Source of the DNA: Promethearchaeota archaeon
Lineage (GTDB): Archaea; Asgardarchaeota; Lokiarchaeia; Sigyniarchaeales; SOKP01
Length of the DNA stretch: 64,000 nucleotides
Assembly: GCA_016926735.1 (NCBI GenBank)
Contig: JAFGOA010000223.1
Span: 35,147 to 99,146, forward strand
Direction: 5' to 3'
A model generated the notes under the pieces. The model made no database searches and was not told where the DNA came from. It saw only the letters and a list, made by a program, of their open reading frames with translations. The position numbers and the translations under genes were made by a program. How positions within the stretch are numbered: position 1 is the first letter of the stretch; the number at the start of each line of letters is the position of its first letter. Below, in pieces: positions 2,935 through 8,126 of this stretch.

Positions 2935-3632
2935 ATTATTAAATGAATAATTCTTAATAAAAAAGGTAAGTGAGTCTTATGATTTTTAATAAAAATGGGG
3001 ATGATATTATCTCAACTACTTATTGGAATTTTATAAAAATCTATAATTATTTATAATAGTTAAAAATTCATTACACTTTTGGGATTTAAATGGATATTTA
3101 GATAGAAATACTCAAGCATTTATCTTCCGTAACCCTAATTATTATACTGAAATAAAAGAAATTATGAATAGTGATTGGATACATAGATTATTCAATCAGG
3201 CTCTCGATAATTTATAACAATTTAAAAATTCTATTTCTTTTCTAAAAACACATAGTTTTGAAAAATTATTTTTATTTCAAAATACGATATATTTATCCAA
3301 TTATATATGTATAGATTAACATAACTTGAAGATACTTCAAATAATTTAATATTTTTGTTTTCTTTAGGAAAAAAAAATTTTCCCTAATATTTTAGGATGG
3401 TAAATTTTCAAACGAGCTTTTTTTTGTTTTTTACTACATCCTAAGAGTATATGATTTTATAAATACAAAATCTATAGAATAATCTCAAATAAAAAAAAAA
3501 AATTGAGAAAATAATGTAAGAAAATTGTACTATATAATGAAGGGATTTGATATCTATACAAAATAGATTTTAATGAAAAGGAGATTAATAAGAGAAAATT
3601 TTAGGTAAAATTTTAATATAAGGTGAATAAAA

Positions 3633-4724
3633 ATGAAAAAAATACGATATCCTACTGAAAATGAAAAAGAAGGGATTACTAAGCTAGAAAATTTGATTAA
3701 AAATTATCCATTTCATTTTTTGAAGGTTTATAACGAATTTAAACAAGATCAAGAATTCCCTATGCTTCAAATAATTATTTCTTGTAAGATGAAAGGATTT
3801 TCTATTCCCTCTTCAAATAATTATATGCGAAATATAATGCGATATAGAGGATTAAATACAGATGATATCAATCGATTTGAAAATTTAGTTATTAATCATC
3901 TAAATTCTTTAATAGAGGAAATAGGATATACAGAAACTAAAGAATATTTAGAAATGAATAATTCATTTAAAGAACTTAATGTGTGGATTGAAGAAATGTA
4001 TAAAAGATTAAGTTATTTTGATAATGATGGTGGGTGGAATAAAGTTGGAGTGGATGACTACCAAAGAATCGAAGAAATTTTAAAAAGAGAAAAAATATAT
4101 AGAGGGACAGAAAACGATGTAAAGGTTAAATTCAAACAAATTTTTGGTTTTCAAGATTTAGTTATAAGAGAAGAAACATACAAGAATCTTACTACTTCAG
4201 AAGAATTTGATGAGATTATTTCGAATATATTAATGTTACTCGGAAAGGGATCATATAAATGCAATGGTGGAAAGGTTAGATTAATTGGATCTTCAGTAGA
4301 AGATATCGAAGAAAGTTGCATCTATTCTTCCCTTCAAAAATATCCCAGAGTATTGAAAAATATGGATCAAGCATTGGAACATAAAATTAAGAAGAAATGG
4401 AATGAAGTAGCATTGTATTGCTGTAAAGCTATTGAATATTTTTATAAAATAATATTAGGTAATAAAAAAAAATATGAAAAATTAACACTTAGATCATTAA
4501 CAGAAGCAATAAGAAGAAATCAAAATAAATTATTAAAAATTGATGATACTGTGTGGCTGGGAGTTGATAAATTATTACAATCTTGTGTTAATTTAGTTGG
4601 GACAATAAGAAATTCCAGAGACTCAGGTCACGGAAATGATCGAGATGTTGAAAAATGGGAAAGTCAAATGGTATACAATTATACAATCGTATTATTAAGA
4701 ACTCTAATACAAATTATAAAATAA
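3633..4724 (+). CDS. Protein with C-terminal HEPN/Abi_C-like domain (possible defence RNase)
   Basis: C-terminal helical domain with IRNSRDSGHG (R-x-H HEPN-like motif) after CCKAIEYFYK. Confidence 0.6.
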   Translation: MKKIRYPTENEKEGITKLENLIKNYPFHFLKVYNEFKQDQEFPMLQIIISCKMKGFSIPSSNNYMRNIMRYRGLNTDDINRFENLVINHLNSLIEEIGYTETKEYLEMNNSFKELNVWIEEMYKRLSYFDNDGGWNKVGVDDYQRIEEILKREKIYRGTENDVKVKFKQIFGFQDLVIREETYKNLTTSEEFDEIISNILMLLGKGSYKCNGGKVRLIGSSVEDIEESCIYSSLQKYPRVLKNMDQALEHKIKKKWNEVALYCCKAIEYFYKIILGNKKKYEKLTLRSLTEAIRRNQNKLLKIDDTVWLGVDKLLQSCVNLVGTIRNSRDSGHGNDRDVEKWESQMVYNYTIVLLRTLIQIIK

Positions 4725-5412: not shown

Positions 5413-5543
5413 TTATAGTCCTTTAGGGCCATTTTCATATATTTTATATGCTTCATCAACAGATGTATTATCATGAACAATTGCTCTTACAGCTTTGATC
5501 ATACCAATAGGACTATCACTTTGAAAAATATTTCTTTCCATAT
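5413..5543 (-). pseudogene. Displaced second copy of the aldolase last exon ([42 protein letters not shown])
   Basis: Same 131-nt length as exon 3 (6893-7023); 20 differences over the 129 nt from ATG to stop by hand alignment. Confidence 0.9.
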
Positions 5544-5559
5544 ATTCAATTACGATATT

Positions 5560-6708
5560 TTATTTTAATTCTTCAAATTTCTTTCCTTTAAGTTGCTTAT
5601 GCCAATAATGTGGTTTTGGTTTTTTAATATTCCATTTTAAACATATTTCATTAACAATCCTTGGATATACATTATATATTTCACATATTTTTTTAATTGG
5701 CATTTTCCAAACTAATTTTATCAGTTCATCCTTTTGAATGGAGTCTTCAAAAATATTTTTAGATGCAACTCTAAAATATTTCCTCTTTCGCGATAAACTA
5801 TCTGGAAAATTATCTAACATTTCATTAAATAGTTTTCCGCCCAAACTAAAATAATAATTCCCTTTACCATCGGGATTGATTTTATGAGGAATATTAAATC
5901 TTTTTTTTATTTCTTCTAAAATTAATTTACTACCAATATGAAATTGATTAGTCCCTTCTTTTCCATCACCATCAAAAAAACCTAGTAAAAATGCCAGATC
6001 TAATTCTCTATTATCTAAATTAGGAAATCTTGTTCTTTTTTTACTACTTTTTACATAACCTAATGTGTATAGATCACTTTGAACATTAGAATTTTTAAAA
6101 GTAATCCTTACATATGTTCTTAGTTCATTTTTAGTCATTTTTGTTCGATATTTCTTGTATTTAGGATTTAAACCTATCGCTTTACAATACCTATCTATTA
6201 AAATTTCATCATTTTTGCTTAATTCAAGTTTTAATTCTCCTCTTTCTCCTAAATAAACTTCAGCCCACAATATTCCAAGCCAATAAGCTTTATTTTTTGA
6301 ATTAATTTTTTTAAAGTAATTTATATTTAAATCAAGATGATAGTTTAAAACTTTTAGACCTTTTTTTCTAGATATTGGTAATTCTTCATTTGATTCTTGG
6401 TATTTCTTAATAAATTTTAATGTATTCTTCCCACGTAAGCCAAAATAAGCTTTAATATTATTACTCCATTCGTTTAATTCATCTAAAGCAATTTTAAATT
6501 GAGGATTCACTTTAATATTTCTTATAATTCTTTTTATACGTCTTTCATAATCACATAATATAAGACTTAATTTTTTATAAGATAAACTTCCATTATGAAT
6601 TATTTTAACTTTAAAACCATTAATAAATAAGGTGGATGATACAATCTTAAAAATCTCGTTTCTTAAATCTTTTATTAATTCTGATGCAGAATAAGTAAGT
6701 CTTCTCAT
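5560..6708 (-). CDS. LAGLIDADG-family homing endonuclease-like protein (free-standing)
   Basis: Two LAGLIDADG-type helices, KAYWLGILWAEVY (degenerate) and LAFLLGFFDGDG; very basic; C-terminal HTH-like segment. Confidence 0.8.
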   Translation of the reverse strand: MRRLTYSASELIKDLRNEIFKIVSSTLFINGFKVKIIHNGSLSYKKLSLILCDYERRIKRIIRNIKVNPQFKIALDELNEWSNNIKAYFGLRGKNTLKFIKKYQESNEELPISRKKGLKVLNYHLDLNINYFKKINSKNKAYWLGILWAEVYLGERGELKLELSKNDEILIDRYCKAIGLNPKYKKYRTKMTKNELRTYVRITFKNSNVQSDLYTLGYVKSSKKRTRFPNLDNRELDLAFLLGFFDGDGKEGTNQFHIGSKLILEEIKKRFNIPHKINPDGKGNYYFSLGGKLFNEMLDNFPDSLSRKRKYFRVASKNIFEDSIQKDELIKLVWKMPIKKICEIYNVYPRIVNEICLKWNIKKPKPHYWHKQLKGKKFEELK

Positions 6709-6892
6709 TCCTCAATTATTTTGTTGTGTTTATTTCTGGTCTTTTTTCTATTTTTATCTAATTGAATTACTTCTCTAGTTTAAAGAATCTTTATTGATTT
6801 ATATGGTTTTTATTAATATATATTTTAATAGAGTCTGCAGATTTTTTTAAATAAAATATTTATATTATAACAAGAAAAAAAAAATAAAAAAA

Positions 6893-7737
6893 TTAAAGTC
6901 CTTTTGGACCGTTTTCATATATGCTATATGCTTCATCAATAGACTTATTCTCATGAACTATAGCTCTTACTGCTTTAATCATGCCAATAGGGCTGTCACT
7001 TTGGAATATATTTCTTCCCATATTTGCGCCTATAATTATAAAAAATAGTTATAGTCTACGCCGACAGCTCCTTTATCAATAGCATTCCTTGCCATAATTA
7101 AAGCATCACGCTCCTCAATCTTCTTTCCACCAGCTATTACAACCGGTACTGGAGCGATAGAAGTGACTTCGTCGAAGTTCTCACAATAATATGTTTTTAC
7201 AAAAGTGGCACCTATTTCTGCTGCCATTCTACTTGCCATACCCAAATATCTTGCATCTCTAACCATTTCCCGTCCAACTGCTGTTACTGCTAAGACTGGA
7301 ATACCATAATCTTGTCCCCAATTTACAATCTTAGTTAAATTCATTAAAGATTGTTTTTCAAATTCACCACCTACAAAGATGGAACAGGTAATTGCTGAAA
7401 CATTTAATCTTATCGCATCTTCAATTGTAACATTTATTTCTTCATTTGAAAGTTCTTTTAACATACTTGCTCCGGCAGATACTCTTAGAACGATAGGTAC
7501 ATCAAAATCCGGTGAAACACAATTTCGAAGCATACCTCGTGTTAACATTAAAGCATCAGCATATTCAAAAAGGGGTTCTAACTTCTTAAAAGATTTTAAC
7601 ATTCCTGGGATATTGCCAAAATATTCATGAGTATGTATTAATTATACATATTTTCCATGATCGACAGCAAGCATGACGCAATGCCCAGATTTAGGTTTAA
7701 TTATTCGGGATAATCTATTTTGCATTCCCCAATCCAT
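6893..7737 (-). CDS. lsrF: LsrF/DhnA-type class I aldolase/thiolase in three exons (7737-7654, 7623-7056, 7023-6893), 260 aa after splicing
   Basis: Exon 1 [13 protein letters not shown]...MLAVDHG; exon 2 YFG...ATFVKTYY...VVIAGGKK...GAVGV; exon 3 [24 protein letters not shown]; 84+568+131=783 nt, in frame. Confidence 0.88.
7024..7055 (-). other. Candidate 32-nt BHB intron 2 of the aldolase gene
   Basis: mRNA GCGU-AG^A-CUAUAACUAU UUUUU AUAAUUAUAG-GCGC-AA^A; splicing gives GGC GUA GAU AUG GGA (GVDMG). Confidence 0.85.
7624..7653 (-). other. Candidate 30-nt BHB intron 1 of the aldolase gene
   Basis: mRNA CAUG-GA^A-AA UAUGUAU AAUUA AUACAUA CU-CAUG-AA^U; splicing gives GAU CAU GGA UAU UUU (DHGYF); contains an in-frame UAA. 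Confidence 0.85.
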
Positions 7738-7862
7738 AGTTTTATCACTTATTTCTTATAATAATTTTATTTTGATATCGTAATAAGTAATGAAATTATT
7801 ATAAATTTTAAGTTTAATAGCTAAAATAAGATATTTTAAAAATTTGTATTAAATATTGTTTT

Positions 7863-8126
7863 TTATTTCAATTCTGTTGTTTTGGTTGCCAAAATAAGAT
7901 CTATTTTTTCATATCCTCTAATTATACCCTTTTGATCGATAAATACAACGAATTGATGATCAGAACAGACAATCCCTGCAGGAACATGTATTTTAACACA
8001 GCCAGATTCTTTTTTTGAAAAAATTTCTGTTGGAATTTTAACTATTTTATCAATTCCGCAAGTTGGACAAGATATATTGAACTCTCTCATGATTGATTCT
8101 AATTTCTTATAATTAATATTTAACAT
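7863..8126 (-). CDS. Small putative zinc-binding protein
   Basis: CPTC ... CSDH ligand pattern. Confidence 0.6.
   Translation of the reverse strand: MLNINYKKLESIMREFNISCPTCGIDKIVKIPTEIFSKKESGCVKIHVPAGIVCSDHQFVVFIDQKGIIRGYEKIDLILATKTTELK

Follow-up and report, generated by a model that had tools for sequence, protein, structure and literature searches.

The pre-mRNA of cbf5 was reportedly found by Watanabe in 2002 to carry a bulge-helix-bulge (BHB) intron. This intron has been described from Crenarchaeota, in Desulfurococcales and Sulfolobales (PMC2738675), and it is given as the only BHB intron in archaeal messages before one was reported in 2020 from the 5' untranslated region (5'UTR) of HVO_1309 in Haloferax volcanii (PMC7714728). 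Here we describe two short inserts in the gene for an LsrF/DhnA-type aldolase of a lokiarchaeon, the first of which, 30 nucleotides (nt) long, is very probably a genuine BHB intron of a protein-coding gene, splicing being what we infer from its structure and conservation. The gene lies in a stretch of 64,000 nt (the window) from a Promethearchaeota archaeon of the Lokiarchaeia (GenBank assembly GCA_016926735.1), at positions 35147-99146 of contig C50 in a genome of 3.88 Mb and 238 contigs; the window is AT-rich, with a GC content of 0.21 to 0.33, and its best protein matches bear the names Promethearchaeota or Lokiarchaeota. In our labels G stands for species genomes, L for loci, P for proteins and C for contigs, and G000 is this genome.

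With cbf5, as described in the reports cited, the locus has in common a short and presumably protein-spliced BHB intron within an archaeal coding sequence, a hetero-oligomeric endonuclease, and presence and loss that are specific to lineages. It differs in the gene (an aldolase) and the phylum (Asgard, Lokiarchaeia), in the use of four insertion sites across the aldolase family, of which as many as three are filled in a single genome (G002), in the many gains or losses that the gene tree requires, and in the physical linkage of its introns to endonuclease cassettes. Moreover, splicing of cbf5 was shown experimentally, whereas the aldolase introns are known here from DNA alone. HVO_1309 is likewise an mRNA that serves as substrate of an archaeal splicing endonuclease, but there the intron is reported from the untranslated leader and in the aldolase gene codons are interrupted (PMC7714728). 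The multi-intron tRNA genes reported from Asgard archaea share with our locus the motif, the presumed enzymes and the repeated gain of non-canonical BHB introns, but their hosts are tRNAs (bioRxiv 10.64898/2026.10.13.758758); the aldolase host is a translated message, and excision must therefore keep the reading frame. The main text of that preprint does not contain the word 'mRNA', and in the full texts searched no BHB intron was found in an Asgard or lokiarchaeal mRNA. The motif and the presumed enzymes, being the same as for cbf5, are already known. New here are the lineage, the gene, the four sites in one metabolic gene family and their fast turnover, the interruption of at least two further genes in this genome, and scars in the DNA by which one or more of the introns can be linked to gene-end cassettes borne by endonucleases.

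On the minus strand of the window, three consecutive open pieces (7737..7654, 7623..7056 and 7023..6893) are separated by two inserts, in the following layout:

7654..7737, minus strand: exon 1, 28 codons, ATG at 7737, last codons ...AVDHG
7624..7653, minus strand: intron 1 (site A), 30 nt, in frame, fourth codon TAA
7056..7623, minus strand: exon 2, YFGN...GAVGV and the first base of an Asp codon
7024..7055, minus strand: intron 2 (site C), 32 nt, frame-shifting
6893..7023, minus strand: exon 3 in use, ..D MGRNIFQ...PKGL, then the stop codon

The three pieces are parts of one gene because they lie head to tail on the NF006081 profile, at positions 32-59, 62-252 and 252-288. As separate pieces they score 39.6, 271 and 47 bits against this profile; an uninterrupted ortholog, P0009 (88% identical), scores 393.4 bits against a cut-off of 297. 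Exon 1 is identical in sequence to the N-terminus of P0009, and exon 2 matches Pfam DeoC with E = 4.7e-14. These profile matches speak for naming the product an LsrF-type thiolase, a member of the DhnA/DeoC class I aldolase superfamily; the initial annotation, made from the letters of the window, had called it an aldolase, a name that is refined here. Its 28 codons for exon 1 were borne out. The exon, which it noted as absent from the list of open reading frames (ORFs), exists as a mechanical ORF of 31 amino acids (7642..7737).

The 30-nt in-frame insert is present as had been described, between the codons of ...AVDHG and those of YFGN..., where it splits the DHG-YF motif and brings in a UAA stop. 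Every helix and bulge that had been proposed for it could likewise be located, within the following feature:

7620..7662, minus strand: whole helix-bulge-helix-bulge-helix (hBHBh') motif of intron 1

The central helix pairs CAUG (7659-7656) with CAUG (7629-7626) and is flanked by the bulges GAA (7655-7653) and AAU (7625-7623). The inner stem UAUGUAU:AUACAUA forms seven perfect pairs, and the inner helix as a whole, which includes one A.C mismatch, reaches nine (7652-7644 with 7638-7630) and is closed by a loop of 5 nt (7643-7639). The outer stem GAU:AUU (7662-7660 with 7622-7620) has three base pairs (bp), one of them G.U. An hBHBh' motif was thus rightly recognised, but the 'near-' of the original 'near-canonical' can be dropped, the layout being canonical. 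By a rule said to come from Marck and Grosjean in 2003, BHB elements are cleaved after the second nucleotide of each bulge. Applied to intron 1 this rule excises exactly 7653..7624, with a boundary that is ambiguous by one A at the DNA level. The minimum-free-energy fold of a 61-nt region contains the central and inner helices, and 4 of 200 shuffled sequences are as stable (z = -2.19).

Evidence also comes from orthologs. We aligned the gene from 28 species genomes (61 genomes were searched) and extended the alignment by 80 metagenome loci. In uninterrupted orthologs the peptides AVDHGYFGN and GVDMGRNIFQ are continuous, and inserts occur at four sites:

Site A, between DHG and Y: 30 nt, in 11 of 104 rows, with 8 distinct sequences
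Site B, between AGG and K, directly after the AGG codons: 30 or 36 nt, in 7 of 107 rows; carriers L022, L028, L031 and L116-L120
Site C, between GVD and M: 32 nt, in 13 of 105 rows
Site D, between CVML and A, 15 nt upstream of site A: 30 nt, in 4 of 104 rows; carriers L097, L099, L105 and L106

Within the 28 species genomes there are five inserts at site A, three at site B and six at site C. The window gene is occupied at A and C, and that of G002, a genome of the same genus, at A, B and C. At site A, 93 of the 104 aligned orthologs lack the insert, and an ortholog with a translated ten-residue loop, which the initial annotation had named as evidence that would speak against an intron, was sought there and none was found among those aligned. 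Its claim that the insert must be removed before translation gains support from the other carriers: all 8 distinct site-A inserts contain an in-frame stop (that of the L006 row was judged by eye), and the 32-nt inserts at site C shift the frame. Several database proteins of relatives begin within intron 1 (MHVHEYFGN, MYIHEYFGN) or end within intron 2 (..GVDYNYFI); these entries are gene-calling artefacts of the same inserts. The 30-nt site-B insert of which L028 is the type is free of in-frame stops and appears in database entries such as P0103 as a translated loop of ten residues.

When the BHB rule is applied at the level of the core, the peptide of the orthologs is recovered in all but one of 23 distinct insert contexts (22 of 23); with the strict hBHBh' definition it is recovered in 12 of the 23, including all 8 at site A. 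The compensatory helix changes that had been suggested as a check are there as well. Across the 8 distinct site-A sequences, 97.7% of cells are paired and three pairs (seven cells) have changed on both sides, as against 22-55% pairing when the register is slid; the covariation score was reached by 3 of 500 shuffles. Pairing amounts to 100% of cells in the central helix and 95.8% in the inner one, and the three outer base pairs are invariant. Intron 2 has a BHB core of the same kind (central helix GCGU:GCGC, bulges AGA and AAA, a 10-bp inner helix with one mismatch, and a weak outer helix). At its site, C, 95% of cells are paired and six pairs (11 cells) have changed on both sides, a score that none of 500 shuffles reached; in one central-helix pair between exon and intron the change from C-G to U-A involves a synonymous exon change, GGC to GGU, matched on the intron strand. 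Removal of the inserts yields an open 260-codon frame in 17 of 17 intron-bearing genes. Codon differences are mostly silent: 78 are synonymous and 25 are not when G000 is compared with G002, and for G011 and G021 the figures are 124 and 27; the exons of the interrupted genes are under purifying selection.

Our favoured reading is that the pre-mRNA of the aldolase gene folds locally into the canonical hBHBh' motif, that an (alpha-beta)2 endonuclease would cut both 3-nt bulges, between 7654 and 7653 and between 7624 and 7623, and that a ligase of the RtcB type would then join the exons, placing ...AVDHG directly before YFGN... and releasing the intron. Intron 2 (7055..7024) would be removed likewise, and the resulting mRNA would encode a 260-residue enzyme. 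The cut chemistry assumed here is taken from what is established for archaeal EndA and RtcB. An (alpha-beta)2 splicing endonuclease with a broad-specificity loop is among the features reported from Asgard archaea (PMC5829648). G000 encodes two EndA splicing endonucleases (on C33 and C100), each with N- and C-terminal Pfam endonuclease domains, and the pair fits this broad-specificity type. Their genes lie at L034 1456-2067 (minus strand) and L035 1210-1818 (plus strand).

Several observations weigh against this reading. Cleavage, ligation and the fate of the intron are steps that we infer, the anatomy and evolution of the locus being what the DNA itself displays. A search for RNA runs that contain the locus found none, and two metatranscriptomes from the study behind the best-matching DNA run yielded no contigs, an outcome from which nothing follows about expression. 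No RtcB ligase was found in the G000 assembly, either with Pfam PF01139 or by tblastn with the RtcB of a relative, even though the genome is rated 99.3% complete; of the 13 genomes searched for RtcB, 11 have it, among them all three of the same genus, and its absence from G000 is likely an assembly gap. The energetic signal of intron 1 is modest, the region of intron 2 folds without any (z = -0.22), and a DNA contig from another study that covers intron 1, with three of its four differences inside the intron, turns one inner-helix pair into C.A. Archaeal transcription and translation are coupled; an unspliced aldolase message would therefore give a peptide of 31 amino acids, and how splicing outpaces ribosomes on introns that contain stop codons is a problem for the splicing reading. 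Finally, BHB motifs are common in this AT-rich genome and are not enriched over a mirror-image control. A loose hBHBh' definition (both strands, lengths 21-120) gives 218,291 matches in the genome against 219,904 for the control, which sets the background at about 2.8e-4 for each position and length. Filters that join ORFs across the motif do no better, leaving 7,864 against 7,882, 534 against 546 and 9 against 11 candidates, and in the absence of enrichment no genome-wide census by motif is possible. The motif alone is thus no better than chance. Its position and conservation exceed chance: the motif of intron 1 falls at the single position and length that the orthologs prescribe, and all 8 distinct relatives of the insert retain it.

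It might be argued that the insert simply disables the gene and that nothing is spliced, the unspliced DNA running into a stop after codon 31 and later into a frameshift. We regard such a pseudogene as highly improbable, given the purifying selection on the exons, the open frames that reappear whenever the inserts are taken out, and an insert that, across 8 distinct lineages, stays at exactly 30 nt and shows paired changes; besides, G000 has only one other paralog match, which is 31% identical. A message that keeps the insert and is translated nonetheless, by ribosome bypass as in phage T4 gene 60 or by read-through of the stop, is an even fainter prospect. The stable hairpin inside the insert would suit a bypass, but the conserved features are BHB-like (3-nt bulges exactly 4 bp apart, exon positions co-varying with the intron) and matched take-off and landing codons are not among them, while the 32-nt insert would require a different, frame-changing hop. 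Read-through would add ten residues within a conserved motif, residues that 93 of 104 orthologs lack. Nor do we give any real credence to an artefact of assembly or binning, despite the fragmentation of this metagenome-assembled genome into 238 contigs. Homologous 30-nt site-A inserts occur in four other species genomes and six metagenome contigs, and the same insert is found in the DNA contig from a different study; the artefact is refuted because independent assemblies carry the insert.

A further alternative accepts the BHB element as real but takes its splicing to be partial or regulated, the intron serving mainly as a switch on enzyme level and not as a neutral passenger. In its favour, the introns sit in the most conserved motifs of the protein (DHG-YF and GVD-MGRN), and in Haloferax removal of the 5'UTR BHB intron is reported to be linked to efficient expression (PMC7714728). 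Selfish elements likewise favour conserved sites, however, and the distribution is patchy. The gene tree (100 of 108 rows, 8 fragments shorter than 780 nt having been dropped) implies minima of five changes at site A, three at B, six at C and two at D, with close sisters with and without the intron; as the rows are kin and the tree a quick one, these minima are rough. With at least five changes at site A, we think a regulatory switch unlikely, and prefer genuine introns that are spliced out.

Turnover of this kind raises the matter of how such introns arrive, and the DNA downstream of the aldolase gene bears on it through two features:

5560..6708, minus strand: free-standing gene for a predicted double-motif LAGLIDADG endonuclease, 382 amino acids, directly downstream of the aldolase gene
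5413..5543, minus strand: relic second exon 3, MERNIFQ...PKGL, 16 nt past the endonuclease stop codon

The two LAGLIDADG-like motifs of the 382-residue ORF are conserved in four homologs, all four of which match Pfam LAGLIDADG_3 (best E = 2.7e-5); the window copy itself scores 16.4 bits against a cut-off of 22.5. A sequence-profile search of the PDB gave a weak match to I-AniI (E = 0.22). A structural search of the PDB with Foldseek was clearer: among the 39 matches listed, the top 13, and indeed all but rank 14, are LAGLIDADG homing endonucleases, engineered variants or a maturase, and rank 14 is the LAGLIDADG domain of WhiA. They include I-AniI, I-SceI, I-DmoI and I-Tsp061I, with E values down to 1.9e-5 and template-modelling scores relative to the target of 0.41-0.55, for a predicted model of moderate confidence (mean predicted local distance difference test score, pLDDT, 62.9). 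On this model the ORF at 6708..5560 is predicted to be a homing endonuclease of the double-motif, double-domain LAGLIDADG type (alpha-beta-beta-alpha-beta-beta-alpha).

The relic begins exactly at the base that matches the insertion site of intron 2, and it shares 85% identity with the exon 3 in use. The layout of the window recurs in G007, with an endonuclease that is 63% identical, and in G035, L116 and L117 a relic exon 3 starts from the same base as in the window. In the L116/L117 lineage, which carries introns at B and C, no endonuclease gene was found between the exon in use and the relic; L117 has at this place a pair of genes of the PIN-domain/AbrB type, resembling VapBC (3627-4282 and 4356-4490). 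In G007 the relic agrees with exon 3 of the intron-less sister L100 at 113 of 115 positions (98.3%), and the exon in use is 77% identical to the relic. The relic of L117/G035 shows 93% identity with exon 3 of L076 and 91.5% with that of L073, both of them intron-less sisters; the exon in use there shares 82% with exon 3 of L073 and about 76-77% with the relic. To judge by these identities the relics are the native exons. Divergence rises abruptly at the site: between G007 and L100 there are 19 mismatches in 637 positions upstream of site C and 31 in 129 downstream. By analogy with G007 and G035/L117, whose exons in use diverge from relics that match intron-less sisters, the exon 3 in use in the window is probably of foreign origin and came in together with intron 2 and the endonuclease gene.

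The origin of the introns is less certain than their nature: it appears that they have been gained and lost often and that at least intron 2 entered as the leading edge of a foreign gene-end cassette with the LAGLIDADG gene. On the simplest reading, a double-strand break at site C of an intron-less allele would have been mended with DNA of an intron-bearing donor, through homology upstream and illegitimate joining downstream, and a homing endonuclease that targets the intron-less site would leave such a scar. The starts of the relic exons coincide with the insertion site or lie no more than about 15 nt away, and a role of the intron in protecting the site against re-cutting is proposed. The endonuclease was found beside the aldolase gene only in G000 and G007, both of which have an insert at site C, and in L079, which has one at site A and the endonuclease gene upstream; at loci without an insert no endonuclease match was found beside the gene within flanks of 1.5-2.5 kb, three lineages being a small sample for this comparison.

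The link to cassette spread is weaker for intron 1 than for intron 2. In L079 a LAGLIDADG gene (26% identical) lies directly upstream of exon 1, and the only informative sister pair at site A (L048 and L047) shows 16 differences over 79 positions of exon 1 and 14 over the 211 positions of the stretch that follows. A relic of exon 1 was sought in the window and in L079, and neither has one. As a wider and tentative proposal, to which we give somewhat less than an even chance, the BHB mini-introns in protein-coding genes of Lokiarchaeia might be the leading edge of selfish gene-end replacement cassettes and not passive relics. A free-standing LAGLIDADG endonuclease would cut the intron-less allele at a highly conserved motif, repair would copy in the donor intron, the foreign gene end and the endonuclease gene or other cargo (such as a VapBC pair), and the small intron, spliced by the host, would shield the new allele from re-cutting. 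A related arrangement is seen on contig C95 (L045 2830-7356, minus strand), where the gene for a 1000-residue SNF2-family helicase is followed by a 415-residue LAGLIDADG paralog (36% identical) and then by a relic helicase 3' end that starts from the RAYRIGQT motif, the same gene-end scar with no intron. An intron is not obligatory for the cassette, because this scar at the SNF2 helicase gene has none.

The nearest parallel for such an arrangement is collaborative homing in cyanophage S-PM2, which is reported to involve a group I intron in psbA and the free-standing endonuclease F-CphI (Zeng, Bonocora and Shub 2009, as described in PMC6083498). In both cases a free-standing endonuclease gene adjoins an intron-containing gene, the intron occupies the expected cut site of intron-less alleles, and foreign DNA and intron appear to travel together. 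The differences are that the introns described here are BHB introns of 30-32 nt, presumably spliced by host proteins, that the endonuclease is of the LAGLIDADG type and the host an archaeon, and that specific cutting and protection by the intron are, at the aldolase locus, predictions. The archaeal rRNA introns of I-DmoI and I-Tsp061I also combine a BHB intron with a LAGLIDADG endonuclease in an archaeon, but there the endonuclease gene lies within the intron; here it lies outside the aldolase gene, past the exon 3 in use, and the aldolase introns are too small to encode anything.

If true, the cassette proposal would amount to a DNA-level route by which introns are gained in mRNAs of the closest archaeal relatives of eukaryotes, through the tRNA-splicing machinery and with neither ribozyme nor spliceosome. 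A mechanism by which coding genes of that lineage gain introns can be put to the test at this locus. It also poses the question of how cells cope with stop-containing introns when transcription and translation are coupled. On the practical side, gene callers truncate or split such intron-bearing genes, and Asgard gene content and metabolic reconstructions are therefore biased.

Among other possible identities of the inserts, a self-splicing group I or group II intron was rejected, the insert measuring 30 nt and having no Rfam match; within the window no Rfam family reached its gathering score, and within 6800-7850 none had E <= 1. A repeat resembling a miniature inverted-repeat transposable element (MITE) was rejected too, neither intron having a related-looking copy in the genome within 7-8 mismatches.

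Aragorn finds introns in 11 of the 42 tRNA genes of G000, and two further protein-coding genes, chosen by eye from the lists of the ORF-joining filters, are interrupted by inserts of similar size:

C4:54826-54855 (L044 527-556), plus strand: 30-nt BHB insert in iorB, splitting the gene for the indolepyruvate oxidoreductase beta subunit
C108:9843-9872 (L043 1844-1873), minus strand: 30-nt BHB insert in a ThiF/E1-like adenylyltransferase gene

The exons of iorB cover positions 1-30 and 36-188 of TIGR03334. The ThiF/E1-like insert sits in the glycine-rich nucleotide-binding motif, between ..GVGAL and GCE..; exon 2 runs from position 32 of the ThiF profile and exon 1 alone has no family match. The inner hairpin and AAUUA loop of this insert are similar to those of aldolase intron 1. 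A candidate on C167 turned out to be a hairpin in the intergenic space that separates two genes and was rejected as an intron.

Further partial matches to the LAGLIDADG ORF family occur at C163:571-1164 and C49:527-691. Upstream of the aldolase gene in the window lies a gene (7863..8126, minus strand) for an 87-residue protein with a CPxCG motif; its homolog in L079 (264-1115) has 283 residues, and the window copy may be a truncated or short form.

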